From positions 182 through 64,181 of the forward strand of contig VGEN01000005.1 of assembly GCA_016869285.1 (NCBI GenBank): a DNA stretch of 64,000 nucleotides. Direction: 5' to 3'. Source of the DNA: Alphaproteobacteria bacterium. GTDB lineage: Bacteria; Pseudomonadota; Alphaproteobacteria; SHVZ01. Made by a program: the position numbers and the translations under genes. A model generated the notes under the pieces. That model searched no databases, had not been told where the DNA came from, and worked only from the letters and a program-made list of their open reading frames with translations. This document shows, piece by piece, positions 446 through 15,480 of this stretch. Numbering within the stretch: the stretch's first letter is position 1; every line of letters starts with the position of its first letter.

Positions 446-1426
446 CTACGTCCCCGCCGCCAGCACCGACTTGCGCTCGTCGGTCGGGGTGCGACCGAAG
501 ATGCGGCGATAGCATTTGGTAAAGTGCGAGGCCGAGACGAAACCGCAGGCCATCGCCACGTCCAAGATCGAGGCGCTGGTCTGGGTCAGCAGGCGCCGGC
601 CGCGCTCCAGGCGCAGCTTCACGTAGTAGCCGTGCGGCGTGGTCTTGAGATAGCGGCGGAACAGCCGTTCGAGCTGGCGCGGGCTGAGCTCGACCGCATC
701 CGCGAGCTCGTTCATATCGAGCGGCTCTTCGATCGCGCTCTCCATGCGGATGATCGTCGTGAGGAGGCGCGGATGCGAGATGCCGAGCCGCGTCTGCAGT
801 TCCATGCGCTGGCGGTCGTCATGCTCGCGGATGCGCGGGTGGATGAAGTTCTCGGCGACGCCGTTGGCGAGCGCGCGGCCCTGCTGGCCCGCGATCACGC
901 TCAGCATCATGTCGAGGGCGGCGATGCCGCCGGAACAGGTCAGCACGTTGCCGTCGATCACATAGATGCCCGAGGTGGTCATGGCGGCAGGGAACCTCTC
1001 GGCGAGCGAGGCAACGTGCTCCCAATGTACGGTGCAGCGCTTGCCGTCGAGGAGGCCGGCGCGGCCGAGGATATAGGCGCCGGTCGAGAGCGCGCCGACC
1101 TTGACGCCCGATCGCGACAGGCGCCGGAGCCAGGCGAAGACGCGCTTGTCGTCATAGCTCTCCGGATTGTACCCGGCGCAGACCAGCATCATGTCGACTT
1201 GCGCGTGCTCCTCGATGCCGCCATGGACGTCGAAGCCGATGCCGTTGCTTGCCAGCACGCGTTCGCCGTCGCGCGAGAACAAGCGCCAGCGATAGAGCGT
1301 CGACTGCTTGATCCGGTTGGCCGAGCGCAGCGGCTCCAGCGCCGCGGCGAAGGCCATCATCGAGAAGTCGGGAATGAGGAAGAAGCCGACCGTGAACACA
1401 TCGGCTTCGGCCCGGCCGCCGTCCAA
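446..1426 (-). CDS. GlxA-family transcriptional regulator (DJ-1/PfpI-like domain + AraC HTH)
   Basis: GFFLIPDFSMMAFAAALEPLRSAN N-terminus; LSPRQLERLF and VAMACGFVSASHFTKCYR HTH motifs. Start re-picked to TTG at 1426 after a GAGGGAG RBS. Confidence 0.9.
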   Translation of the reverse strand: MDGGRAEADVFTVGFFLIPDFSMMAFAAALEPLRSANRIKQSTLYRWRLFSRDGERVLASNGIGFDVHGGIEEHAQVDMMLVCAGYNPESYDDKRVFAWLRRLSRSGVKVGALSTGAYILGRAGLLDGKRCTVHWEHVASLAERFPAAMTTSGIYVIDGNVLTCSGGIAALDMMLSVIAGQQGRALANGVAENFIHPRIREHDDRQRMELQTRLGISHPRLLTTIIRMESAIEEPLDMNELADAVELSPRQLERLFRRYLKTTPHGYYVKLRLERGRRLLTQTSASILDVAMACGFVSASHFTKCYRRIFGRTPTDERKSVLAAGT

Positions 1427-1668: not shown

Positions 1669-3351
1669 TTAAGCCTCGAGCCAGATCTCGTTGCACTCGA
1701 TGTACTGGGTCGGGTGCATCCGAAAGCCCTTCATCTTCTTGTCGCAGTAGGTGAAGACCTTGCGGAACAGCGGCTGCACCAGCGGCCCGTCATTCTGAAG
1801 GATCTCCTGCAGCCGCTTCACATGCACGCGGCGCTTCTCGACATCGGCGGTTGCTTCCGCCTGGTCGAGGACCCGGTCGAACTCGGCGTTCGAGAATCCG
1901 GACTCGTTCCAGGGAACGCCGGTGCGGTAGGCGAGCGCCAGGCACATGACGCCGAGCGGCCGGTGGGACCAGTCGCCGCACGCGAAGGGCGCGGTGTTCC
2001 AGACCTTGTTCCATTCCGGCGAGGGCAGCACTTCGAGCCGGGCCTTGATCCCGACCTCGGCCCATTGCTGGATCATCACCGTGGCGACGTCCTTCGTCCA
2101 GTTGTTGGAAACGGTGAGCGGGATCGGGATCTCGAGCCCGTTCGGATAGCCCGCCTCCGCCAGCAGCTTCTTCGCCAGCGCCTTGTCGTGCTTGAACGGC
2201 GGCATCGGCGCGTATTCCGGGTGCACCGGGGCGACATGATGATGCTCGGCGCGCGAGCCGATGTCGCCGAAGGTGATCTCGGCCACCCTGTCGTTGTCGG
2301 TCGCGTGCCGCATCGCCTTGAGGACGCGGTTGTCGTCGAAGGGCTTCACCGGATACGCCCGCGCATGAACCGTGGCGCCGGTGCCGACCGAGTAGAAGTC
2401 GAGATCGGGCAGGCGCTTCAGGATCGGCAGCTGCGAGGGGTTGGTGGCGACGATCGAATGGACCTGCTTGGAGGCCTGGGCCGCGACTTCTGCGGCCGGG
2501 TCATCGCCGAGATCGACGAAGATCACCTCATCGAGATACGGCCCCTTGCCCCAGTAGTCCTTCCGCGCCTTCATCACCGCGCGCTTCGAGATGTCGTACT
2601 CGACCAGGTCGAAGGCGCCGGTGCCGTTCATGCCGACACCGAGCTTGCCGTTTTCGGTCGGGTCGACGATGAAGAAGGGATAGTGGAAGAAGTGCTCGGG
2701 CACCGCGAGCTGCGGCGCGCGCAGGTTCATGCGGACGGTGAAGTCGTCGACCTTCTCGATCGCATTCGCATCCCAGAGCTGAGAGGACATCCGGGGCTTG
2801 CCCTGCGCGTCGTTCTCGCCCGTCGGCACATCGACAGTCATGTAGCCCTTCATCAGGCCGAGCACCGACGACCCGGTCTTCGGATCGAGCACGCTCTTGA
2901 TGTTCCAGATCACCTGGTCGGCGGTGAGCTTGCCGCCCTTGCGCCAGGTCACGTCCCGGCGGAGCTTGAGCGTCCAGGTCTTGAGGTCCTCGCTCGGCTG
3001 CCAGCTTTCGAGCAGCATCGGCCGCGTGACGTTGTCGGGGCCGGTGTTGGCAAGGTACTCGACCATCTGGCGTGCGAGATTGCTCGTCGGCACGTTGCCG
3101 GTACGATGCAGATGCGCAGTCTCGCGCACGCGCGCGCAGAGCCGGAGCGAGCCGCCCTTGCGCGGTGCGCCCTGGGCATAAGCCGCAGGCGCGACCGCGC
3201 CTTTGTCGATCTTGCCCGCGAAGGCGTAAGCGGCCGAAGCGCTGACGCCGAGCAGCGTCGCGGTACGCAGGAACTCGCGGCGGTCGCATTTGCCCTCGGC
3301 AAAGAGGGTCTTCAGCTTCGGGATGTAGGAATGCTCGCGGTCACGGGACAT
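1669..3351 (-). CDS. ABC transporter substrate-binding protein, family 5 (peptide/nickel), Tat-exported
   Basis: DRREFLRTA twin-arginine motif; PMLLESWQPSEDLKTWTLKLRRDVTW and GTGAF(D)LVEY family-5 motifs. Start re-picked to MSRDREH at 3351. Confidence 0.9.
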   Translation of the reverse strand: MSRDREHSYIPKLKTLFAEGKCDRREFLRTATLLGVSASAAYAFAGKIDKGAVAPAAYAQGAPRKGGSLRLCARVRETAHLHRTGNVPTSNLARQMVEYLANTGPDNVTRPMLLESWQPSEDLKTWTLKLRRDVTWRKGGKLTADQVIWNIKSVLDPKTGSSVLGLMKGYMTVDVPTGENDAQGKPRMSSQLWDANAIEKVDDFTVRMNLRAPQLAVPEHFFHYPFFIVDPTENGKLGVGMNGTGAFDLVEYDISKRAVMKARKDYWGKGPYLDEVIFVDLGDDPAAEVAAQASKQVHSIVATNPSQLPILKRLPDLDFYSVGTGATVHARAYPVKPFDDNRVLKAMRHATDNDRVAEITFGDIGSRAEHHHVAPVHPEYAPMPPFKHDKALAKKLLAEAGYPNGLEIPIPLTVSNNWTKDVATVMIQQWAEVGIKARLEVLPSPEWNKVWNTAPFACGDWSHRPLGVMCLALAYRTGVPWNESGFSNAEFDRVLDQAEATADVEKRRVHVKRLQEILQNDGPLVQPLFRKVFTYCDKKMKGFRMHPTQYIECNEIWLEA

Positions 3352-3613: not shown

Positions 3614-4555
3614 ATGGCGCGGCTGATTGCACAGCGCTTGTTCAACTCGGCCGTCTCGATCGCGCTTGTCTCGATCGCGCTCTTTCTTATCTTCGAGCTC
3701 TCGCCGGAGACCGTCGCCGCCGACGCCCTCGGCCAGTATTCGACGCGCGAGCAGCGCGACCTGTGGCTCGCCGCCAACGGCTATTTCGAGCCGATGCACG
3801 TCCGCTTCCTCGACTGGGTCCGCCGCTGCGTGACCGGCGAGTTCGGCCAGTCGCGCCTCTACAACCGCCCGGTCTCCGACGTGCTCGGCCCCCGCCTCGC
3901 CGCCTCGGCGACTCTCGCGGCCCTGTTCTTCTCGGTCCTGATTCCGCTGTCGCTCGGCCTCGGCATCGCCGCCGGCATGCGCGAGGGCTCGATGCTCGAC
4001 CGCGGCATCTCCTTCGCTTCGATCCTCACCACTTCGGTGCCGCCTTTCGCGAGCGCCGTGCTGCTGACTGCGATTTTCGTCTTCTGGCTCGGCCTGCTGC
4101 CGGGCACCTCGAGCATGGTCGACGGCTTTCGCTGGAAGGAGCTGATCCTGCCGGCGGCCGTGCTGCTGCTCTACGATTTCGGCTACCTTGCGCGCATCAC
4201 GCGCGCCTCGATGGCCGATGTCATGCAGACCGCCTACATCCGAACCGCGGCACTGAAGGGCCTGCCCGACTGGTGGATTATCTTCAGGCACGCGCTCAGG
4301 AACGCGCTGATTCCGCCCTTCACCGTCATCATGCTGCAGATCAACTGGCTGATCGGCGGTGTCGTGGTCGTCGAGTTCTTCTTCGCCTACAAAGGCTTCG
4401 GCTCTCTGATCCTCGAAGCCTCGCTCACCCACGACCTCTTCCTGCTGCAAGCCTGCACCGCCGTCTCGGTTCTGCTCGCCGTCGGCACCCAGACCATCGC
4501 CGACATCGGCTATGGCCTCCTCAACCCCCGCATCCGCGTGGCCGCGGCCAAATGA
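3614..4555 (+). CDS. Dpp/Opp-type ABC permease (DppB-like)
   Basis: Hydrophobic segments; YIRTAALKGL..HALRNALIP EAA loop; LIGGVVVVEFFFAYKGFG. Confidence 0.92.
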   Translation: MARLIAQRLFNSAVSIALVSIALFLIFELSPETVAADALGQYSTREQRDLWLAANGYFEPMHVRFLDWVRRCVTGEFGQSRLYNRPVSDVLGPRLAASATLAALFFSVLIPLSLGLGIAAGMREGSMLDRGISFASILTTSVPPFASAVLLTAIFVFWLGLLPGTSSMVDGFRWKELILPAAVLLLYDFGYLARITRASMADVMQTAYIRTAALKGLPDWWIIFRHALRNALIPPFTVIMLQINWLIGGVVVVEFFFAYKGFGSLILEASLTHDLFLLQACTAVSVLLAVGTQTIADIGYGLLNPRIRVAAAK

Positions 4556-5412
4556 CCGACGCGACCAAAGCGCAGACGACACCGACGCTCCGCTCCCTGC
4601 TGGCGGAGAGTCCGATCCTGATTGCCGGCCTGTCGATACTCGGGTTCTGGCTGATGGTGGCGATCCTCGCGCCGTGGATCGCGCCCTTCCGTCCCAACGA
4701 GAACCTGGTGCCGATGGCGCTGCCCGGACAACGCACGCCGGACGGCCGGCTGATGTTGCTCGGCGCCGACCATCTCGGCCGCGACGTGCTTTCGCGCATC
4801 ATTTATGGCGGCCGCACGGTGCTGACCTATGCGCCGCTGGCGACGCTCTGTGCCTACTCGGTCGGCGTCACGCTCGGGCTGATCGCCGGCTACAAGGGCC
4901 GCTGGATCGACGAGCTGCTGTCGCGCTTTGCCGACCTCGTGCTCGCCTTCCCGGTGATCGTCCTCTACATCGTCATCATCCAGAAATTCGGCGCTTCCGG
5001 GCTCAATATCCTGATCGCGGTCACGCTCGCCTCCAGCCCCGGCATCATGCGGCTGGTGCGCGGCGTCGTGCTCGATCTCCGCACCCGCGCCTATGTCTCG
5101 GCAGCGCAGATGCGCGGCGAGTCGACTTTCTACATCCTCTTCGTCGAGATCCTGCCGAACGCGCGCGGCCCGCTGATCGTCGATGCCTGCCTGCGCCTGG
5201 GATACGTCACCATCACCATCGGCACGCTGGGCTTCCTCGGCCTCGGCATCCCGCCGCCAACGCCGGATTGGGGCAGCATGATCAACGAGTCCCGCCACTT
5301 CGCCCTGGTCTTCCCGCACATGGCGGTGTTCCCGTGCCTCGCCGTCTCCTCGCTCGTGCTCGGCTTCAACCTGATCGCCGACGGCCTGCGCGAGCTGTCG
5401 CTGGCGGATTGA
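4552..5412 (+). CDS. Dpp/Opp-type ABC permease (DppC-like)
   Basis: LGADHLGRDVLSRIIYGGR; YVSAAQMRGES..EILPN; PPTPDWGSMI. ATGA overlap with the upstream gene. Confidence 0.92.
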   Translation: MTDATKAQTTPTLRSLLAESPILIAGLSILGFWLMVAILAPWIAPFRPNENLVPMALPGQRTPDGRLMLLGADHLGRDVLSRIIYGGRTVLTYAPLATLCAYSVGVTLGLIAGYKGRWIDELLSRFADLVLAFPVIVLYIVIIQKFGASGLNILIAVTLASSPGIMRLVRGVVLDLRTRAYVSAAQMRGESTFYILFVEILPNARGPLIVDACLRLGYVTITIGTLGFLGLGIPPPTPDWGSMINESRHFALVFPHMAVFPCLAVSSLVLGFNLIADGLRELSLAD

Positions 5413-7457
5413 TGACCGAGCCTCTTCTCCAGCTCGACGGTCTCTCGGTCTCCTATCGGACGCGGCGCGGACCGGTGCCGGCTGTTGTCGACGTCTCTCT
5501 CAGGCTCAACCGCGGGGAGAGCCTCGGCCTCGTCGGCGAGTCCGGCTGCGGCAAGTCGACGATCGCCTTCGCCATCATGCGCTGGCTCGCCGGGCGCGGA
5601 CAGATCGTCGGCGGCCGCGTGCTGTTCGAAGGCCGCGACATGGCCGGGATCTCGCGCGAGGAGCTGCGGCGGATCCGGGGCAAGCGCATCGCCATGGTCT
5701 TCCAGGAGGCCATGTCGGCGCTCAACCCGTGCCTGACCATCGGCGCGCAGCTGACCGAGGTGCTGAAGTTCCACGAGAATGTCGTCGGACCGGGGGCAGA
5801 GCGGCGCGCGAAGGACATGCTCGCGGAGGTCCGCATCCCCGATCCCGACCGCGTCTTCCGCGCCTTCCCGCACGAGATCTCCGGCGGCCAGCAGCAGCGT
5901 GTGGTGATCGCGATGGCGCTGCTCGCCAATCCGGCGCTGCTGCTGCTCGACGAGCCGACCACCGGCCTCGACGTCACGGTGGAGGCCAGCGTCGTCCGCC
6001 TGATCGCCGAGATCAGCCGGCGCTTCGGCACCTCGCTCCTCTACATCTCGCATAACCTCGCGCTGATCTCGCGCGTCTGCGAGCGGATCGCCGTCATGTA
6101 TGCCGGCGAAATCGTCGAAGAAGGCCCGACCCGACGTATCCTGACCGCGCCCATCCACCCCTACACGCGCGGCCTGATCCGTTGCCTGCCGGAATCGGGC
6201 GCCGACAAGATCGCGCGACCGCTCTCGCCGATCCCCGGTCAGATCCCGGCGCCATGGGAACGTGCCGCCGGGTGCTTCTTCCAGCCGCGCTGCGGCTATG
6301 CGAGGGACGGGCTCTGCGACGCCTCGCATCCGCCGCTCATCGGCTACGGCAAGGGCTCGACCGTGCGCTGCCTCCGCGCGAGCGAGATCGAGCCCGGCCG
6401 CATCGACGCCGTCGCCGGTGAGGCGCCGCCCGCAGCAGACGGCGTCGCCGTCTCCGTGGATCGGCTCAGCAAGGACTACCGGCTGACACCACCGGGCCTG
6501 CGCGGCCTCCTCCCCTTCGCCGATCCGCTCAGAATTCGCGCCAACGATCACCTGACCTTCAACGCGGCCTCCGGCCGGACGCTTGCCATCGTCGGCGAGT
6601 CAGGCTGCGGCAAGTCGACCTTCGCGCGCGTCCTGACCGGCCTCGAGCGTGCCACCGGCGGCCGTATCGAAGTCGCTGGCACCGATCTCGCGCAGCTTTC
6701 GGTCATCGATCGCAGCCGCGAGCAGCTTCGCGCGCTGCAGATGGTGTTCCAGAACCCCGACGAGACCCTGAATCCGAGCTATCGCGTCGGCCGCCAGATC
6801 GCACGGGTCGCCAGCCGCCTGCTCGGCCTTGGCCGCAGGGAGCGGGCGCAGCGCGTCCGCGACCTCTTCGCCGAGATCCGCCTCCCGGCCGGCATCGCCG
6901 ACCGCAAGCCGCGGCACCTCTCCGGCGGACAAAAGCAGCGGATCGCCATCGCCCGCGCTTTCGTCGGCAATCCGGAGATCGTCGTCGCCGACGAGCCGGT
7001 CTCGGCGCTCGACGTCTCGGTGCGCGCCGCCGTGACTCAGCTCCTGATGGAGATCCAGCGCGCGCATGGCACGACGCTGATCCTGATCAGCCACGACTTG
7101 GCTCTCGTTCGATATGTCGCCGACACGGTCGTCGTCATGTATCTCGGCCAGGTGATGGAGGTCGGCACGACGAGCCAGGTGTTCTCGGCACCGCACCACC
7201 CCTATACCGAAGCGCTGCTCGCGGCACAGCCCAAGCTCGAAGACGACCGCGGTCTGCACGCGCCGGTCGAGGGCGAGACGCCGAGCCCGCTCGATCCGCC
7301 GCAGGGCTGCCCCTTCCATACGCGCTGCCCGCGCAAGGTCGGGACGATCTGCGAGATCTCGCGTCCGTCCGAGCAGGTGACGCCGGCCGGACACCGCATG
7401 GCCTGCCACATCCCGATGGACGAGCTCGTCCGCGCCCAAGAGAGAGCGACGACATGA
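5412..7457 (+). CDS. Fused double ABC ATPase (DppD/DppF-like)
   Basis: Two GESGCGKST Walker A motifs, ISGGQQQR and LSGGQKQR signatures, DEP Walker B motifs and two C-terminal Cys-rich tails. Start at 5412 overlaps the dppC stop. Confidence 0.93.
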   Translation: MTEPLLQLDGLSVSYRTRRGPVPAVVDVSLRLNRGESLGLVGESGCGKSTIAFAIMRWLAGRGQIVGGRVLFEGRDMAGISREELRRIRGKRIAMVFQEAMSALNPCLTIGAQLTEVLKFHENVVGPGAERRAKDMLAEVRIPDPDRVFRAFPHEISGGQQQRVVIAMALLANPALLLLDEPTTGLDVTVEASVVRLIAEISRRFGTSLLYISHNLALISRVCERIAVMYAGEIVEEGPTRRILTAPIHPYTRGLIRCLPESGADKIARPLSPIPGQIPAPWERAAGCFFQPRCGYARDGLCDASHPPLIGYGKGSTVRCLRASEIEPGRIDAVAGEAPPAADGVAVSVDRLSKDYRLTPPGLRGLLPFADPLRIRANDHLTFNAASGRTLAIVGESGCGKSTFARVLTGLERATGGRIEVAGTDLAQLSVIDRSREQLRALQMVFQNPDETLNPSYRVGRQIARVASRLLGLGRRERAQRVRDLFAEIRLPAGIADRKPRHLSGGQKQRIAIARAFVGNPEIVVADEPVSALDVSVRAAVTQLLMEIQRAHGTTLILISHDLALVRYVADTVVVMYLGQVMEVGTTSQVFSAPHHPYTEALLAAQPKLEDDRGLHAPVEGETPSPLDPPQGCPFHTRCPRKVGTICEISRPSEQVTPAGHRMACHIPMDELVRAQERATT

Positions 7458-9160
7458 TCCGGAGCGAGATGATCGCCACCCGTACCGAGGTCTCAGGAAC
7501 CAGGGGGGTGTGCACGGGCGGCCATCCGGCCGAGGCCGCTGCCGGCATCGCCATGATCGAAGCCGGCGGCAACGCCATCGACGCGTTGGTCGCCGCGGCC
7601 TTCGTCGGCTTTGTCGTCGAGCCTTCCTCCTGCGGGCTCGGCGGGTACGGTCACCTCGCCGTCTGGCTCGGCAAGGAAAAGCGCTTCGTCACCTTCGATC
7701 ACTATGTCCGGGCACCGGGTGCCGCCCGGCCGGACATGTTCGAGATCGATCGCACCAAGCCCATGAAATACTACGGCTTCCCCTACACGGTCGGCATGAA
7801 GGCGGAGCAGGGGCCGCTGGCGCCGGCGGTGCCGGGAGCGGTCGCCGGGCTCTGCGATGCACACCGCCTGCTCGGCAGGCTGCCTTTGTCTCAGGTGCTG
7901 GAGCCGGCGATCGCCGAGGCCGACGCCGGCATCGAGGTGACATGGCAGCTTCTTCTGCCGATCGGCGACCGGCTTGCCGCAATCCAGGCGCTGCCGGATA
8001 CCGCCGCCTGGCTCCTGCGCGGCAACATGCCGCCCAAGGCCGCGGGCCAGCTCGGGTCCGGCGATCGCCTCGATGGCACCGATCTCGCCAAGACGCTGCG
8101 GCGCATCGCCGCCGAAGGCAAGCGCGGCTTCTATGACGGCTTTGTTGCCCAGGCGATCGAGCGCGCCTGCGTGAGCCAGGGAGGAGTCCTCACCGCCGCC
8201 GATCTCGCCGCGTACAGGACGCGCATCCTGGAGGAGAAGCCGACACGCTATCGCGGCCTCGGCTGCAACACGGCCTACGACCAGGTGACCTATGAGGCGC
8301 TGAACATCCTGCAGTGCTTCGACTTGAAGGCGCTCGGCGCGGACAGCCTCGCCTTCCGCCATCTCGTCGCCGAGGCGTTGGCCTGCGGCTTCATCGACAG
8401 CATGACCCATTACGGCGACCCGGATTTCGAGCGCGCCCCTGTCGAAGGCCTCGCCAGCCCGGAGTTCGGCCACATGCGCGCCCGGCAGCTCCGCATGGAC
8501 AAGGCGCTGCCGCGCCCGGTCGCCGCCGCCGATCCCTGGCCCTTCGACAATTCGGCCGAGCGGCCGACGCGGATCGCAGGCGAGCCCGGGATGGCGAAGC
8601 TCTCCGGCACCAGCCAGATGGCGGCGGCCGATGCCGAAGGCAATGTCTGCGCTCTGATCACCAGCCTCACCAGCGGTTTCGGCTCGCTGATGCTGGTGCC
8701 GGGCACCGGCGTCGTCCTCAACAACTCGATGCAGAACTTCGACCCGCGCCCCGACCAGGCGAATTGCATCAAGCCCGGCAAGATGCCGATTTTCGCTGCG
8801 CCGTCGCTTGTCGCCGAGAAGGACGGCCGCGCCGTCTTCGCAGGATGCGGCTCCGGCGGCTATCGCATCACCACGGGCGTGCTGCATGCCTTCCTGCACG
8901 CAACCGATTTCGGCATGGGGCCGCAAGCCGCCATCGACGCGCCGCGCGTCCACTGCCAGGGCCAGGAGACCTTTGTCGACCCGCGCATTCCGGCCGAGCT
9001 CCGCGACGGCCTTGCCGCCCTCGGCCATAAAGTCGTGGTGCAGGCGGAGTCGCCGGGGCTGAACGCCTTCGGCCGCGTCAACGCCATCACCGTCGCAAAG
9101 GACGGCACCTTGCGCGCCGGCACCGGCCCCGCCTGGGCGACGGCGGCAGCAGCGTGCTGA
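7454..9160 (+). CDS. Gamma-glutamyltransferase-family Ntn hydrolase, atypical (copy 1)
   Basis: GGNAIDALVAAAF, VEPSSCGLGG, AVPGAVAG, GTSQ (putative Thr nucleophile), GSGG, AAIDAPRVH. Confidence 0.85.
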   Translation: MIRSEMIATRTEVSGTRGVCTGGHPAEAAAGIAMIEAGGNAIDALVAAAFVGFVVEPSSCGLGGYGHLAVWLGKEKRFVTFDHYVRAPGAARPDMFEIDRTKPMKYYGFPYTVGMKAEQGPLAPAVPGAVAGLCDAHRLLGRLPLSQVLEPAIAEADAGIEVTWQLLLPIGDRLAAIQALPDTAAWLLRGNMPPKAAGQLGSGDRLDGTDLAKTLRRIAAEGKRGFYDGFVAQAIERACVSQGGVLTAADLAAYRTRILEEKPTRYRGLGCNTAYDQVTYEALNILQCFDLKALGADSLAFRHLVAEALACGFIDSMTHYGDPDFERAPVEGLASPEFGHMRARQLRMDKALPRPVAAADPWPFDNSAERPTRIAGEPGMAKLSGTSQMAAADAEGNVCALITSLTSGFGSLMLVPGTGVVLNNSMQNFDPRPDQANCIKPGKMPIFAAPSLVAEKDGRAVFAGCGSGGYRITTGVLHAFLHATDFGMGPQAAIDAPRVHCQGQETFVDPRIPAELRDGLAALGHKVVVQAESPGLNAFGRVNAITVAKDGTLRAGTGPAWATAAAAC

Positions 9161-9183
9161 GAACGAGGATGGCCTCTGACGCC

Positions 9184-9228
9184 TTCATGCCCCCTCTCCC
9201 GTGCGAAGCGCGGGGGAGGGGGCATGAG
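9184..9228. repeat. Strong hairpin / minimal REP between the two GGT-like genes
   Basis: TCATGCCCCCTCTCCCG-TGCGAAGCG-CGGGGGAGGGGGCATGA, sharing the CCCTCTCCC..GGGAGGG arms of family A. Confidence 0.75.
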
Positions 9229-9237
9229 GACGGTTTC

Positions 9238-10917
9238 GTGCTGAAGCCCGGCTCGGTCTTCCTCAGCCGCACGCCAATCGCCGGCCGCAAGGGCGCGGTC
9301 GCCTGCGGGCATCAGGAAGCGGCGGAGCTTGGCCTCGATGCGCTAAGGCGCGGGGGCAACGCCATCGATGCAGCGATTGCCGGCGCCTTCGCCTCCTTCG
9401 TCGTCGAGCCGCAGATGTGCGGCATCGGCGGCCATGGCCGCCTGTCGGTCTATCTCGCCGACAGAGGGCAGGCGATCGGCATCGACCACTTCATCCGCGC
9501 GCCCAAGGCGGCGACGCCGGAAGTGTACGCGGCGGCGCTAACGCGCTGGCGCAACGCCGGCTGGGGCGGCACCGAGGGCGCGATCAACACCACCGGCCAC
9601 CTTTCGGTCGGCATCCCCGGCACCGTTGCCGGCCTTTGGGAGGCGCATCGCCGCTTCGCCAGGCTCCCCTGGCGCTCGCTGGTCGGCCCGGCGATCGAGC
9701 TCGCCCGTGCCGGCATTGCCGCCGATGCGCGCCTGACCCTTTCCATTGCCGGCCGCACCGGGGAGATCCGCCAGCATCCGGAAGCAGCGGCGCTACTGCT
9801 GCCGGACAATGCGCCGCCGCGACCGGCAAACGCCGGCGGCGCGCTTCATCGCTTCGACTTCTCCGACATGGCAAAGACGTTGGAGGCTATCGCCGAAAAG
9901 GGCGCTGCCGCCTTCTATGACGGCCCGCTCGCCGCCGCGATCGATGCCGAGATGAGAAAGGCCGGCGGGTTGCTCACCGCCGAGGATTTGGCCGGCTACA
10001 AGCCCGACACCTTCCAGCAGCCCTGGTACGAGTATCGCGGCCGCGGCTATGTCACCTGCGGCGATCTGATATTCGCCGAGACGCTCAACATCCTCGAGCG
10101 CTTCGACCTCGGCAGCCTCGGTCAGGGAAGCGCCGAATCCTTCCACCTGATCGCCGAGGCGCTGGCGCAGTCTTTCGCCGACAGTTTCGCGCACGCCGCC
10201 GACCCCCGGCACCTGAAGGCACCGCTCGAAGGACTGGCGAGCAAGGCCTTCGCCGCTGTGCAGGCGGCGCGCATCCGCACGGATCGCGCGCAACGGACGT
10301 ACGCCCCGGGCGATCCCTGGCCGCATCAGGGCCCGACGCCCTCGGTCCCGCCTCCGCCCTTCGAAGGCACGACCCAGATCGCCGCCGCCGACGCCGACGG
10401 CAACATGGCGAGCCTGATTACCAGCCTCGGCAGCGCCTTCGGCTCTCTGGTTCTGATCCCCGGCACCGGCGTCTTCCTCGGCAATGCCATGCAGTGGTTC
10501 GACCCGACACCGGGGCGGGCCAACTCGGTCGGTCCGGGACGCATGCCGCTCTATGCCGCGCCGGTCGCGATCTTCCGCGAAGGAGGACGAGCGCTCGGCG
10601 CCATCGCCGGCTCCGGCGGCTACCGGATCCAGCCCGCGGTCCTCTTCGCGGCAATCAACCGCCTCGACTACGGCGTTGATCCCCAACGTGCGATCGACCT
10701 GCCGCGAATTCACACCGAAGGTGAAGGGCTGGAGGTCGACACGCGCATCGCCGCATCCGTAACCGAGCGGCTGAAAGCGCTGGGCCATTGCGTGCGGCCC
10801 GTCGACGGCTCCGGCTTGCCTACGGCCTTCGGCCGTCCTTCGGCCGTGTGGCGTGCCGCCGATGGCAGCCTGATTCCGGCCAGCGACGCCCGCTCCGGCG
10901 GCGTCGCCGCCTTCTGA
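9238..10917 (+). CDS. Gamma-glutamyltransferase-family Ntn hydrolase, atypical (copy 2)
   Basis: GGNAIDAAIAGAF, VEPQMCGIGG, GIPGTVAG, GTTQ, GSGG, AIDLPRIH. Start re-picked to GTG at 9238 after GAGGA. Confidence 0.85.
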   Translation: MLKPGSVFLSRTPIAGRKGAVACGHQEAAELGLDALRRGGNAIDAAIAGAFASFVVEPQMCGIGGHGRLSVYLADRGQAIGIDHFIRAPKAATPEVYAAALTRWRNAGWGGTEGAINTTGHLSVGIPGTVAGLWEAHRRFARLPWRSLVGPAIELARAGIAADARLTLSIAGRTGEIRQHPEAAALLLPDNAPPRPANAGGALHRFDFSDMAKTLEAIAEKGAAAFYDGPLAAAIDAEMRKAGGLLTAEDLAGYKPDTFQQPWYEYRGRGYVTCGDLIFAETLNILERFDLGSLGQGSAESFHLIAEALAQSFADSFAHAADPRHLKAPLEGLASKAFAAVQAARIRTDRAQRTYAPGDPWPHQGPTPSVPPPPFEGTTQIAAADADGNMASLITSLGSAFGSLVLIPGTGVFLGNAMQWFDPTPGRANSVGPGRMPLYAAPVAIFREGGRALGAIAGSGGYRIQPAVLFAAINRLDYGVDPQRAIDLPRIHTEGEGLEVDTRIAASVTERLKALGHCVRPVDGSGLPTAFGRPSAVWRAADGSLIPASDARSGGVAAF

Positions 10918-10994
10918 CCGATGCCCGTCGCTTTGCGGCACGTTCCGGCCACCCACGCGACGTGAGATGAACCGACCCACCAAGAGGAATTGAG

Positions 10995-12341
10995 ATGGCC
11001 CTTCCCGCCAAAGCCAAATATGTCGTCATCGGTGCCGGCGTGCACGGCTTGAGCACCGCCTACCACCTGGCGACCGAGCTCGAATCGAGCGGGCGCGGCT
11101 CGGGCAAGGATATCGTCATCCTCGACAAGACCGGGATAGCTGCCGGCGCCTCCGGCATCGCCTGCGGCGTCATCCGCAACAACTACTTCCAGCCGGCGAT
11201 GCGCGAGCTGATGGCCGAGTGCGTCGCGGTCTGGGAGAGCGACCCGAAAGCCTTCAGCTACCACCCGGTCGGCTACATGCAGATCTCTCCTGAAGTGATG
11301 CATGAGAATGTCGGCACGATCGCGAAGCAGCAGAAGGACATCGGCTACGACTCTGTTTTCATTGAGGGCGAGGTAGACTGCACGAAGTACATGAAGGGCC
11401 TGTTCGACGATTGGCAGGCCAAGGGCATCACTTCGGTCCTGCACGAGAAAAAGGGCGGCTACGCCAATAACCGCGCCTCGATGTACGGGCTGGCGAAGAA
11501 GGCCGAGGCCAAGGGCGTCCGGATCGTCGCTCCCACGAAGGTCACAGGCTTCAAGTTCGGATCGAACAGCAAGGCAGTTTCGGCGGTCGAGACCGATCGC
11601 GGCACCATCGCCTGCGACTATGTCGTGGTCGGCGTCGGCCCCTGGATCAATCAGATCTGGGGGATGCTGGAGCTGCCGAAGAGCGTCGACATCAAGGGCC
11701 GGGACGGCAAGATGCACAAAGGCGTCGGCATGTGGACCTATTGGTGCCTGGAGGAAGGCACGCTCGGCGTCGATCCCAAATACGGGCTCATGAACGACGG
11801 CAGGATGGGCCCGGTGATGCATGTCGACACCGACGCGCCGCTCCACTCCGATGAGGACGGGTCCCTCATCACCGACAAGCTCTGGGGCATCTACTACAAG
11901 CCCGACTTCAACTTCGACGGCATCCAGGGCGGCGCCATGCCGTACAAGGTGGAGACGCCCGTCGACCAGGTGAAGATCGACCCCTATGGGCCTGACTCGC
12001 CGGAGTTCATCGTCGATGCGAACTTCGCGCATATGTTCACCTCGGCGCTCGCCTTCTGCCAGAAGCGCTACTCTGGGCAGGCGCACAAGTGGAAGCACGA
12101 GCCCTCGGGCGGTCTCGGCTGCTTCACCCCGGACAGCTTCCCGGTTTTTGATGTCTTCCGCGAGAACGTCTATGTGCTCGCCGATTCGAACCATGGCTAT
12201 AAGATGATCGCGGTCGGCAAGCTCGCCGCCGGAGAGATCGTCAGCGGCCAGAAGAATCGGCTATTGGAACCCTTCCGGATCTCGCGCTTTCCAGAAGGCA
12301 AGCTGCATCCGGTGTCGAATTCTCCATTCCCTTGGAGCTGA
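10995..12341 (+). CDS. FAD-dependent oxidoreductase, DAO/sarcosine-oxidase-beta-like
   Basis: VVIGAGVHGLSTAYHL dinucleotide-binding motif; GASGIACG; FTPDSFPV; SNHGYKM..GKL. Confidence 0.85.
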   Translation: MALPAKAKYVVIGAGVHGLSTAYHLATELESSGRGSGKDIVILDKTGIAAGASGIACGVIRNNYFQPAMRELMAECVAVWESDPKAFSYHPVGYMQISPEVMHENVGTIAKQQKDIGYDSVFIEGEVDCTKYMKGLFDDWQAKGITSVLHEKKGGYANNRASMYGLAKKAEAKGVRIVAPTKVTGFKFGSNSKAVSAVETDRGTIACDYVVVGVGPWINQIWGMLELPKSVDIKGRDGKMHKGVGMWTYWCLEEGTLGVDPKYGLMNDGRMGPVMHVDTDAPLHSDEDGSLITDKLWGIYYKPDFNFDGIQGGAMPYKVETPVDQVKIDPYGPDSPEFIVDANFAHMFTSALAFCQKRYSGQAHKWKHEPSGGLGCFTPDSFPVFDVFRENVYVLADSNHGYKMIAVGKLAAGEIVSGQKNRLLEPFRISRFPEGKLHPVSNSPFPWS

Positions 12342-12342
12342 C

Positions 12343-13737
12343 ATGACCAGCCGCGCCGTCGCCTTCACCCGCAAGCTCCGCTTCCAGGACCTGCCGGAGA
12401 CGGTGGTCGAGCAGGCCAAGCTCTGCCTCGTCGATCTGATGGCAGCGGCAGCCGCGGGCATGGAAACCGCGATGTCGCGGATCATCCGCAAGCACGCGGC
12501 GGAAGTGTTCGGCGGCGGCAAGGCCGGCGTTCGCATGCTGCTCGACGGCAGACGCACGAGCTGGCCGGGCGCGGCGCTGGCCGGCGGCATCACCATCGAT
12601 GCCTTCGACTCCCATGACGGCCATGTGCTGACCAAAGGCCATGCCGGCGTCGCTATCCTGCCGACCCTGCTGGCGCTGGCCGACGGCGAGACGAGAGTCT
12701 CCGGCCGCGAGTTCCTCACCAGCCTCGTGATGGGCTACGAGATCGCGATCCGTGCCGGCATCGCCACGCACCGGACCTGCAAGGACTATCACACCTCCGG
12801 TTCCTGGAACGCGCTCGGGGCCGCTGCGGTGGTCGCCCGCTGGCTCAGGCTGTCGCCGGCGGTGACGCGCGAAGCGCTCGGCATCGCCGAATATCACGGG
12901 CCGCGCAGCCAGATGATGCGCTGCATCGACTTCCCTACCATGGTCAAGGACGGCTCCGGCTGGGGGGCGATGGCCGGCGTCAGCGCCGCGCTGCTGGCGC
13001 GCGACGGTTTCACCGGGGCGCCGTCGCTGGTCTCCGAAGCCGAGGATGTCGCCGACCTCTGGGCCGACCTCGGCACGCGCTGGCGGATCATGGAGATGTA
13101 CTTCAAGCCCTATCCGGTCTGCCGCTGGGCGCAGCCGCCGATCACCGCGAGTCTCGGACTCCTGGCGCAGCACGGGATCAAGGGCGCCGACGTAACGGGG
13201 ATCGAGGTCGAGACCTTCCACAATGCCGTCAGGCTCGCGACCCGCGCCCCGAAGACGACCGAGGAAGCGCAGTACAGCCTCCCCTTCCCGGTCGCCGCCG
13301 CGATCGTCCATGGCCGCGTCACCGCGCGCGAGGTCGACGGTGCTGGATTGCGGCACCCGCGCGTGCTCAAGCTCGCCCAGGAGATGACGCTGACCGAGGA
13401 CCTGGCACTTACCGCGGAGTTTCCGGCCCGCCGCATCGCCCGCGTGAAGCTCACGACCAAGGACGGCCGCGTACTAGCTTCCGAGCCGACCGAGGCTCTC
13501 GGAGATCCCGAGCGCCCGCTCGGGCCCGAACGCATCCTTGCCAAGTACCGCGAAACCGCCGAGCCGGTGCTCGGCGCCGCTCGTGCCGGGAAGATCCTCA
13601 AGGAGGCGATGCAAATGGATGGCGCCAAGGCCGATGCCCGCGCCTTCGTCGACCTGGCGCTGGCGCCGGTGAAAGCTCAGCGTGCGACAAAGCGCCCCAG
13701 CAACAGCCGCACGCTCGCCATCGCTGCCGACGACTGA
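12343..13737 (+). CDS. MmgE/PrpD-family protein
   Basis: AKLCLVDLMAAAAAG; DAFDSHDGH..GHAG; FKPYPVCRWAQ; AQYSLPF; GDPERPL. Confidence 0.88.
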   Translation: MTSRAVAFTRKLRFQDLPETVVEQAKLCLVDLMAAAAAGMETAMSRIIRKHAAEVFGGGKAGVRMLLDGRRTSWPGAALAGGITIDAFDSHDGHVLTKGHAGVAILPTLLALADGETRVSGREFLTSLVMGYEIAIRAGIATHRTCKDYHTSGSWNALGAAAVVARWLRLSPAVTREALGIAEYHGPRSQMMRCIDFPTMVKDGSGWGAMAGVSAALLARDGFTGAPSLVSEAEDVADLWADLGTRWRIMEMYFKPYPVCRWAQPPITASLGLLAQHGIKGADVTGIEVETFHNAVRLATRAPKTTEEAQYSLPFPVAAAIVHGRVTAREVDGAGLRHPRVLKLAQEMTLTEDLALTAEFPARRIARVKLTTKDGRVLASEPTEALGDPERPLGPERILAKYRETAEPVLGAARAGKILKEAMQMDGAKADARAFVDLALAPVKAQRATKRPSNSRTLAIAADD

Positions 13738-13955: not shown

Positions 13956-14455
<500 letters not shown>

Positions 14456-15346
14456 GATGGTCGGCACATGGTCCGGCATGACCATGTATTTGTACCCGGC
14501 ATCCCGATAGAGACGGAGCGAGGCCGGCATGTCCATGTCGTCGTCGTCGGTAAAGGTCTCCATGAAGTCGAGCTTGCGCCCGCAGATGTTGAGGAAGTGG
14601 ACGTTGAAGATCTTGCCGCGGCTGCCGAACCAGCGGATGACCTCCCCCACCTCCGATTTCGGGTCGTCCAGCATCTCGCCGATCGTGCCCTGGCAGAAAT
14701 TGCGGCCGTGATAGGGGCTCGCCTCGATCTCGACGAAGCGCTTCAGGCCCTCGACCGTACCGAGAACGCGCGTGACGCCGCGCCAGCCGGGTGGCGTGTA
14801 GGGATCGTGCGGATGGCAAGCGAGCCGCACCTTGCTGGATGTCGCGACCGGCACGACGCGCTTCAGGAAGTATTCGATCCGCGCCCAGTTCTCCTCGGGA
14901 TGGACGATGCCGGCGACGCCCGGCGGCGCCTTCTGATCGGCCTCCGCCCAGCGGAAGGACTCGTTGCGCGATCCTCCGCGCCCTAGGGAGGGCTTGGTAC
15001 GCGGGATGCCAATGATGTTGAGATTGTACTTGGCGGCCGGGATTCCGGCTTTTCCGATCCGCTCGATCAGCGCGCAGATCGAGTCGATCTGGCGGTCGCG
15101 ATCGGGGCCGGCGGTCAGGATGTCTGGGCTGTCCTGCTTCTCGATCGGCAGCGAGTTCATCGGCAGCTGCACCATGTCGAGGACGAGGCCGAAGCTCTCG
15201 ACCTTTTCGCGGTGCCTGTTCAGAACGTCGAGCGACCAGTGATGCGGATTCCCCTCGGGGTCGGCGCAGATGTGGCGCACGCCGAGCTGTGCCCAAACGC
15301 GATAGTCGCTATCGTCGCGAGCCTTGACCTGGGTTCCGAGATACAC
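14456..15346 (-). pseudogene. Mannonate dehydratase (UxuA)-family gene, 3'-truncated and fused in frame to the ABC fragment
   Basis: [12 protein letters not shown].., [40 protein letters not shown] motifs. The sequence switches to ABC ATPase immediately after DHVPTI. GTG start at 15346 follows GGGAGGGG. Confidence 0.75.
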
Positions 15347-15480
15347 CGCCCCTCCCCGCCGCTCCGCTTGCCGCCGAGGATAGCGGACATGCCCGAGGCC
15401 CGGCACCGGGCTTTCGGACCGTTGCAAGGCCTGCACGGATGGTAGGCTAGGATCGACGCCCGTTGACACAGGGGAGCCCC

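Follow-up and report, generated by a model that had tools for sequence, protein, structure and literature searches.

We analysed a 64,000-nucleotide (nt) stretch of a lake-water metagenome contig (VGEN01000005.1, assembly GCA_016869285.1, Alphaproteobacteria), hereafter the window, in which two adjacent genes of the gamma-glutamyltransferase (GGT) family, here termed GGT_A and GGT_B, are encoded together with an ATP-binding cassette (ABC) importer (Table 1). The initial annotation had described 7454-10917 as a tandem of GGT-family genes, and this description holds: both open reading frames (ORFs) match PF01019 and are uninterrupted, and their products are 45% identical over 546 residues. A search of the window returned no further GGT homologue.

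The only revision concerns the start of GGT_B, for which GTG 9238 is most likely the correct choice, in place of GTG 9154 or the third possible start, ATG 9169. This is because the homologues of GGT_B have lengths of 557-562 amino acids (aa), a GAGGA stretch lies 7 nt 5' of GTG 9238, and the AlphaFold2 (AF2) model of the 582-aa form predicts disorder for residues 1-24, with a predicted local distance difference test score (pLDDT) below 50. The start codon of GGT_A overlaps the stop codon of the upstream ATPase gene (ATGA), and the gap between GGT_A and GGT_B is 8-77 nt, with no overlap. Inspection of the N-termini of GGT_A and GGT_B revealed neither a signal peptide, as the initial annotation had also noted, nor room for one: the conserved core of GGT_A begins at about residue 15, the sole hydrophobic stretch in its first 60 residues is the conserved core helix, and the N-terminus of GGT_B has no hydrophobic stretch. 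Thus, both proteins are cytoplasmic.

Table 1. Positions of the GGT-family genes and the adjacent genes in the window
Feature	Position	Strand	Details
AraC-family regulator, N-terminal DJ-1/PfpI domain, GbdR-like	446..1426	-	Pfam DJ-1_PfpI and HTH_18
Periplasmic substrate-binding protein, family 5 (peptide/nickel/opine type)	1669..3351	-	PF00496; divergent from the operon
ABC permease 1, DppB/NikB/GsiC-like	3614..4555	+	PF00528, E 4.3e-32; NCBIfam matches all under cut-offs
ABC permease 2, DppC/NikC/GsiD-like	4552..5412	+	PF00528 and OppC_N; NCBIfam; 4-nt overlap with permease 1
Fused double ABC ATPase, DppD-DppF in one chain	5412..7457	+	Two ABC_tran and two oligo_HPY domains
GGT_A	7454..9160	+	ATG, 568 aa; exact ORF match
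GGT_B, longest ORF	9154..10917	+	GTG, 587 aa; exact ORF match
GGT_B, preferred form	9238..10917	+	GTG 9238, about 559 aa; paralogue of GGT_A
FAD-dependent amine oxidoreductase, DAO family	10995..12341	+	PF01266, E 1.3e-32; distantly sarcosine oxidase beta-like
MmgE/PrpD-family protein	12343..13737	+	PF03972 and PF19305

Fold and family membership

The PF01019 profile, of 512 positions, matches GGT_A over positions 3-505 (340 bits, E 2.5e-101) and GGT_B over positions 2-511 (359 bits, E 5.6e-107). The structure prediction that the initial annotation had proposed as a check yielded the stacked alpha-beta-beta-alpha fold of N-terminal nucleophile (Ntn) hydrolases for both proteins. The AF2 model of GGT_A has a pLDDT of 90.4 and a predicted template-modelling score of 0.93, falling below a pLDDT of 50 only at residues 378-385, and that of the 582-aa form of GGT_B has values of 81.4 and 0.87, with low-confidence stretches at residues 1-24, 135-143, 396-400 and 422-425 in the numbering of that form. 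Low confidence is thus concentrated in the linker that immediately precedes the nucleophilic Thr (378-385 in GGT_A; 396-400 in GGT_B), as would be expected of a self-cutting precursor.

A Foldseek structure search with the GGT_A model alone also returned the GGT fold, with GGT precursors as top matches: the Bacillus licheniformis GGT precursor ranked first, followed by 2NLZ, the Escherichia coli GGT, LmbA and a Thermoplasma acidophilum GGT-like protein. The template-modelling (TM) score was 0.83 to both 4y23 and 2nlz, and 2NLZ, at rank 2, had the lowest root-mean-square deviation among the top matches (3.1 A). The canonical GGTs (E. coli 2DBX/2E0W, B. licheniformis, B. subtilis) are the best matches by sequence and structure (4y23: E 4e-59 for GGT_A and 4e-72 for GGT_B, TM about 0.83), and share with both proteins the Pfam family, the fold, the nucleophilic Thr, a hydroxyl at position 409, the Gly-Gly pair and Arg513. 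By predicted fold and catalytic residues, GGT_A and GGT_B are therefore members of the GGT family (PF01019/MEROPS T03).

Unlike this shared framework, the finer features depart from canonical GGTs: the two proteins are only ~27-33% identical to them and lack their signal peptide, His393 is changed to Gln and six substrate contacts are replaced. On the TIGR00066 equivalog model GGT_A scores 285.4 and GGT_B 306.1 bits against a cut-off of 357.85, and on NF007187 they score 170.6 and 220.5 bits against a cut-off of 990. Judged by the equivalog score and the six contacts, neither protein qualifies as a bona fide gamma-glutamyltransferase or glutathione hydrolase (EC 2.3.2.2/3.4.19.13). A comparison with PDB sequences placed no solved structure or characterised enzyme within the clade of either protein (clades A and B), and our literature search retrieved neither a characterised member nor a cluster of GGT, PrpD and DAO genes.

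Catalytic residues and the remodelled donor pocket

Residue positions are given in E. coli numbering and were checked residue by residue in HMMER alignments to the E. coli (2e0w) and B. licheniformis (4y23) GGTs. In these alignments, the motifs DHYVRAP (82), GTSQ (385), SLT (404), KMPIFA (443) and GSGG (466) of GGT_A, and DHFIRAP (111), GTTQ (405), SLG (424), RMPLYA (463) and GSGG (486) of GGT_B (587-aa numbering), lie opposite the canonical GGT motifs. First, the catalytic machinery is retained, as the initial annotation had proposed from the GTSQ/GTTQ and GSGG motifs, all of which are present and align to Thr391 and Gly483-Gly484. The nucleophile Thr391 corresponds to T386 of GGT_A and T406 of GGT_B, the oxyanion-hole pair to G468-G469 and G488-G489, respectively, and Arg513 is kept in both. 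Thr409, the hydroxyl partner of the nucleophile, is Ser in both (S404 in GGT_A), and His393, which adjoins the nucleophile, is Gln in both. Autoprocessing is predicted between Gly385 and Thr386 of GGT_A (Thr codon 8609-8611) and between the Gly and the first Thr of GTTQ in GGT_B (Thr codon 10369-10371); the conserved residues around the site and the low model confidence of the linker would fit such self-cutting. The predicted site is thus Gly-Thr, as against the Gln-Thr or Glu-Thr of canonical GGTs.

Second, all six residues that contact the glutamate moiety are replaced in both proteins. Among the contacts of the alpha-carboxylate, Arg114 is Tyr in GGT_A (Y84) and Phe in GGT_B, Ser462 is Phe (F447) and Tyr, and Ser463 is Ala in both (A448 in GGT_A). 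Among those of the alpha-amino group, Asn411 is Thr (T406) and Gly, Gln430 is Ser (S425) and Ala, and Asp433 is Asn (N428) and Trp. Third, the 12-residue lid loop is missing from both, a feature shared with the Bacillus GGTs. The alignments therefore confirm that the canonical DFRE.AP, TxH, TLN and RPLSSM motifs are not retained, and the change goes further than the initial annotation had recognised, extending to the alpha-amino contacts Gln430 and Asp433 and to the lid loop.

We then counted these residues in 210 homologues, comprising 164 A-like and 46 B-like proteins. The catalytic positions are nearly invariant (Thr391 in 210/210, Gly-Gly in 209/210 and Arg513 in 210/210), and the replacements are also strongly conserved within each clade: the A-like proteins have Asn433 in 164/164 and Phe462 in 163/164, and the B-like proteins have Trp433 in 43/46, Tyr462 in 45/46 and Gly411 in 43/46. 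Being fixed within each clade, and specific to it, the pocket replacements are not due to chance. In a neighbour-joining tree of representatives, A and B form sister clades in a superclade of 17 representative clusters (50% identity).

We searched 1.84 billion representative proteins exhaustively with HMMER, obtained 1,898 at E <=1e-30 and surveyed the pocket in the 131 full-length representatives nearest to GGT_A, a sample that is biased to its relatives rather than family-wide. Thr391 is kept in 130 of the 131, and five or six of the canonical glutamate-binding residues are present in 13. Since 89 of the 131 have none of the six, a remodelled donor pocket is the rule in this part of the GGT family, with proteins that have none of these contacts exceeding canonical GGTs by about 7 to 1 in the sampled neighbourhood, and the initial annotation had overrated how unusual the pair is. 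These representatives include a large group with Trp433 and Asn463 (W-x-N). Previous work has described high variability of the 'LSS' stretch among the GGT-like proteins of the non-canonical branch (PMC4568574), and has pointed out that many GGT homologues have no assigned function (PMC5519988). Close homologues are named 'gamma-glutamyltransferase family protein' by NCBI, which fits the sub-cut-off TIGR00066 scores.

Several non-canonical relatives with structures or functional data offer points of comparison. The 'cephalosporin acylase'- or YwrD-like homologues (B. halodurans 2NLZ) and the GGTs of the extremophiles Geobacillus thermodenitrificans (GtGGT) and Picrophilus torridus (PtGGT) are, like GGT_A and GGT_B, intracellular, devoid of the lid loop, equipped with a Gly-Thr processing site and non-canonical at positions 114, 462 and 463; Asn433 is also common to this group and clade A. 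However, their replacement residues are different (His-Thr at 462/463 in 2NLZ, Ser at 114 in the extremophile GGTs), and identity is ~28%. LmbA and Ant6 (6J3A, 6J3I; Foldseek ranks 7-9 to GGT_A) also have the GGT fold, expose an N-terminal Thr by self-processing and lack gamma-glutamyl activity (PMC5519988, PMC6085292); they differ in being C-C hydrolases of actinobacterial antibiotic biosynthesis, with an Asp-Thr site, ~600 aa and another gene context. The oxamate amidohydrolase HpxW (5HFT), which the initial annotation had cited as an analogue, is likewise a GGT-fold Ntn hydrolase acting on a non-glutamyl amide. The analogy is a loose one, as HpxW is the most distant GGT-fold match (E 1.4e-14 for GGT_A and 1.5e-18 for GGT_B; Foldseek rank 50), weaker than every canonical GGT. 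With no purine or hpx-type genes in the neighbourhood, the pair does not belong to the HpxW group.

Gene neighbourhood and its conservation

The genes from 3614 to 13737 are most simply read as a single seven-gene operon, flanked by the divergent genes for the binding protein and the regulator, given the ATGA overlap, the tight spacing, and a scan of the operon that detected neither an Rfam element nor a convincing internal terminator. The binding protein has weak matches to DppA, NikA, GsiB, OppA and CntA, all far under the cut-offs, and its PDB matches are of the OppA, DppA, AgaA and AccA types. Its N-terminus, MSRDREHSYIPKLKTLFAEGKCDRREFLRT, is a long extension with a twin-arginine-type motif, RREFLRT, which suggests export dependent on twin-arginine translocation (Tat). 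The regulator gene lies downstream of the binding-protein gene in the same direction, and its product matches the NCBIfam GbdR model with 374.7 bits (E 4.5e-112), under the cut-off of 480. Of the two enzymes encoded 3' of GGT_B, the DAO-family protein scores 74.8 bits with TIGR01373, far under the cut-off, and has PDB matches to 1y56_B and SoxB, and the MmgE/PrpD-family protein is, among solved structures, most closely related to iminodisuccinate epimerase (PDB 2hp3, E 3.7e-22) and IRG1/cis-aconitate decarboxylase.

Beyond the operon, at 13956-15469 on the minus strand, a 98-aa ORF has an oligo_HPY domain only, and in the product of a 377/418-aa ORF the C-terminal half of a mannonate dehydratase (UxuA) is joined to the end of an ABC ATPase domain. 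This region, which is identical in the loci L001 and L002, looks like a rearrangement scar or a pseudogene of a DppF-like ATPase. Further along, at ~16.7-20 kb on the minus strand, the beta-ketoadipate pathway is represented by its protocatechuate branch, with genes for both subunits (alpha and beta) of the 3,4-dioxygenase, a cycloisomerase of the Lyase_1 family, a CMD decarboxylase and a flavoprotein resembling UbiX; a gene for an Ldh_2-family dehydrogenase follows on the plus strand.

Identical copies of the window are present in ENA and JGI assemblies, and a search of sequencing runs matched at least 20 DNA metagenomes from lake water, with no RNA run among the matches. All relatives are metagenome-assembled genomes (MAGs), mostly of uncultured Alphaproteobacteria. 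As gene calls on loci with 67% G+C came from a caller based on third-position G+C and were noisy, only recurrent gene clusters were used. The arrangement of a binding-protein gene next to permease-permease-ATPase-A-B is kept in nine loci (L004, L006-L010, L012, L015 and L016, the last of which ends upstream), and the binding protein and A-B are kept in three more (L011, L013 and L104); across these loci, identity to the window proteins is 64-89% for A and 51-87% for B. In all, importer-A-B order persists in about a dozen MAGs that represent separate species-level genomes. Wherever the upstream flank of a B gene with at least 51% identity is on the contig, an A gene lies immediately upstream. 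The adjacency of regulator and binding protein is kept in L006-L010, and the DAO-family gene 3' of GGT_B recurs in L006-L010, L014 and L020.

A PrpD-family gene lies near GGT_A in three architectures: those of L006-L010, of L012, and of L018, L019 and L024. The last three (L018 1446-12074, L019 7213-17970 and L024 9818-17504) are from gammaproteobacterial MAGs and encode a GGT_A-like protein (74% identity); after it come genes for a TonB-dependent receptor, for a TPR/sulfotransferase-like protein of 580 aa and for the PrpD-family protein, with a B-like GGT (47%) nearby in L018 and L019. GGT_A is associated here, in a second architecture, with both a PrpD-family enzyme and an uptake system. In other alphaproteobacterial MAGs, by-eye identification placed genes for dimethylglycine/sarcosine dehydrogenase-like, M24 creatinase/DoeA-like and metal-dependent amidohydrolase proteins beside A and B (L011 11751-14492 and 15876-17135, L015 1347-2597, L013 7612-9072); these neighbours echo the GbdR-like regulator and the SoxB-like DAO protein of the window.

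A-like genes are far more widespread than B-like genes, and lone A-like genes end the same type of importer operon in L021 and L023. A scan of metagenomes with a clade-A alignment was dominated by the generic pattern GGNA[IV]DA, and 78 of its 80 loci are distant GGTs with 27-36% identity, leaving L024 and L025 as the informative ones. A protein search of a plasmid collection gave a best match of 34.6% identity and no annotated cultured relative.

Function of the pair and competing explanations

We propose, with a probability of about 0.55, that GGT_A and GGT_B function in the cytoplasm as Ntn amidohydrolases for an imported peptide- or opine-like amide, with acyl pockets that no longer fit free L-glutamate. 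Under this proposal, the amide would enter the cytoplasm by way of a family-5 binding protein exported through Tat and an importer of the Dpp/Opp/Gsi type whose double ATPase is fused. There, each enzyme would cut itself at the Gly-Thr site to expose the nucleophilic Thr. It would then hydrolyse an amide bond in one or more imported compounds, passing through an acyl-Thr intermediate that the Gly-Gly oxyanion hole stabilises. The acyl group is probably not a free gamma-L-glutamyl group, because charged and polar contacts have given way to conserved aromatic and small residues (Y/F114, F/Y462, A463, N/W433). As the conserved pockets of A and B differ, the two enzymes would most likely act on different amide bonds or on a pair of related substrates, either one after the other or side by side. 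That the tandem order is conserved and the genes are closely spaced speaks for a common task. There are precedents for altered chemistry in the GGT fold: LmbA and Ant6 cleave C-C bonds (PMC5519988), and the D433N mutant of the E. coli GGT (EcGGT) gains glutaryl-7-aminocephalosporanic acid acylase activity (PMC8062742).

In this lineage, the DAO-type amine oxidase and the PrpD-family enzyme may handle the products. The DAO-type family oxidises secondary amines and the PrpD family acts on polycarboxylates, which hints at a substrate with a secondary amine or a polycarboxylate; the hint is weak because both neighbours are missing from about half of the loci.

That patchy distribution is one of several observations that count against our proposal. 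Further, some lone A-like genes lie in unrelated contexts, a few of them transporter-free (L022, L105 and L106), and with contexts so mixed the role of clade A may be general rather than pathway-specific. There are also enzymes in which comparable changes are tolerated: GtGGT and PtGGT have Ser at the position of Arg114 and are still treated as GGTs, and in GtGGT His-Thr replaces the Ser-Ser pair (PMC8062742). Likewise, the R109S mutant of the B. licheniformis GGT (BlGGT) keeps 85% of its activity and its S460A and S461A mutants gain activity, while EcGGT D433N retains 82% of its hydrolysis (PMC8062742). Thus, the fold, the catalytic residues, the lack of export and the remodelled pocket bear out the part of the initial annotation that called these proteins cytoplasmic Ntn hydrolases with a remodelled pocket, and its non-glutamyl substrate, weakened by the mutant and extremophile data, is plausible.

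These same tolerated substitutions lend themselves to the best-surviving alternative, namely that the locus imports and breaks down glutathione or gamma-glutamyl peptides, with A and B binding the glutamyl group in another way. A parallel is the GisABCD-Ggt system of Staphylococcus aureus, in which an Opp-type importer is combined with a cytoplasmic GGT that cleaves both reduced and oxidised glutathione (PMC10355420). Going by its published description, the layout matches this proven glutathione system in that an Opp/Dpp-type ABC importer is encoded with a cytoplasmic GGT-family enzyme, which again speaks against our proposal. It differs in that the uncultured Alphaproteobacteria have a pair of paralogues whose pockets are remodelled, where S. 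aureus has a single Ggt with demonstrated hydrolysis. The double ATPase is fused as in GsiA of the E. coli Gsi system, and the name given to homologues by JGI is 'glutathione hydrolase'. However, the Gsi importer models are far from matched (GsiA 427 against a cut-off of 1077, GsiB 79.8 against 594, GsiC 147 against 463 and GsiD 196 against 484 bits), and score no higher than those for Dpp, Nik and Opp. Moreover, the substitutions seen singly or in part elsewhere occur here as a joint loss of all six contacts, with conserved bulky aromatics in their place (Y/F114, F/Y462 and, in B, W433), EcGGT R114L and R114D have no detectable activity (PMC8062742), and the TIGR00066 scores are under the cut-off. 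Taken together, we regard glutathione breakdown as an unlikely explanation, albeit one that deserves to be kept in view.

A somewhat less likely arrangement, compatible with our amidohydrolase proposal, is an obligate A-B hetero-oligomer, an idea that the initial annotation had raised as a hetero-complex, here a dimer of two processed heterodimers in which the complex alone is functional or B mainly modulates A. The invariable position of B directly after A wherever the flank is readable would fit this, as would the junction in L004, where the A and B genes share one base. Between any two genomes compared, B has also diverged more than A (87 against 89%, 78 against 88%, 62 against 73% and 51 against 66%), which is typical of an accessory paralogue. 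In contrast, both clades retain the full catalytic set and their own conserved pocket, which fits two working sites, A is widespread without B, and the window genes are spaced apart without overlap.

Non-amide chemistry, be it LmbA/Ant6-like C-C cleavage or biosynthetic acyl transfer, is very improbable: the LmbA structures 6j3i and 6j3a are among the top fold matches (E about 1e-34), and LmbA and Ant6 prove the fold capable of such cleavage, but sequence similarity to LmbA is low (E about 1e-10), the Gly-Thr processing site is not the Asp-Thr of LmbA, and the context is one of importer and catabolic-type enzymes, with no 4-alkylproline or other biosynthetic genes nearby.

Returning to the amidohydrolase proposal, a more specific version of it is tentative and rather doubtful in its details: A and B might catalyse both amidase reactions, or together make up one heteromeric amidase, in a catabolic pathway of abundant freshwater Alphaproteobacteria that is as yet undescribed. 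The pathway would act on an imported natural amide with secondary-amine or polycarboxylate moieties, such as an opine-like, aminopolycarboxylate-like or N-methylated compound, with the DAO protein, the PrpD-family enzyme and the GbdR-like regulator completing it. Rhizoferrin-type citryl amides, Gln-derived opines, carnosine or other beta-alanyl peptides, and quaternary-amine amides (with the aromatic pocket and the GbdR-like regulator in mind) are unsupported candidates that we name as ideas only.

GGT_A and GGT_B are a real but fairly ordinary lead: altered GGT relatives are common, no long-standing open question is touched, and a GGT specialist would be little surprised. Proteins with the PF01019 domain are routinely labelled 'gamma-glutamyltranspeptidase/glutathione hydrolase', a label that is probably wrong for the 17-cluster superclade, since it keeps the Ntn machinery and, going by the aligned residues, none of the glutamate contacts. 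If the specific pathway outlined above were true, the superclade characterised by Y/F114, N/W433 and F/Y462 would gain its first function. The conserved importer-A-B module offers a handle on the substrate, and would allow the annotation of many environmental genomes to be corrected.

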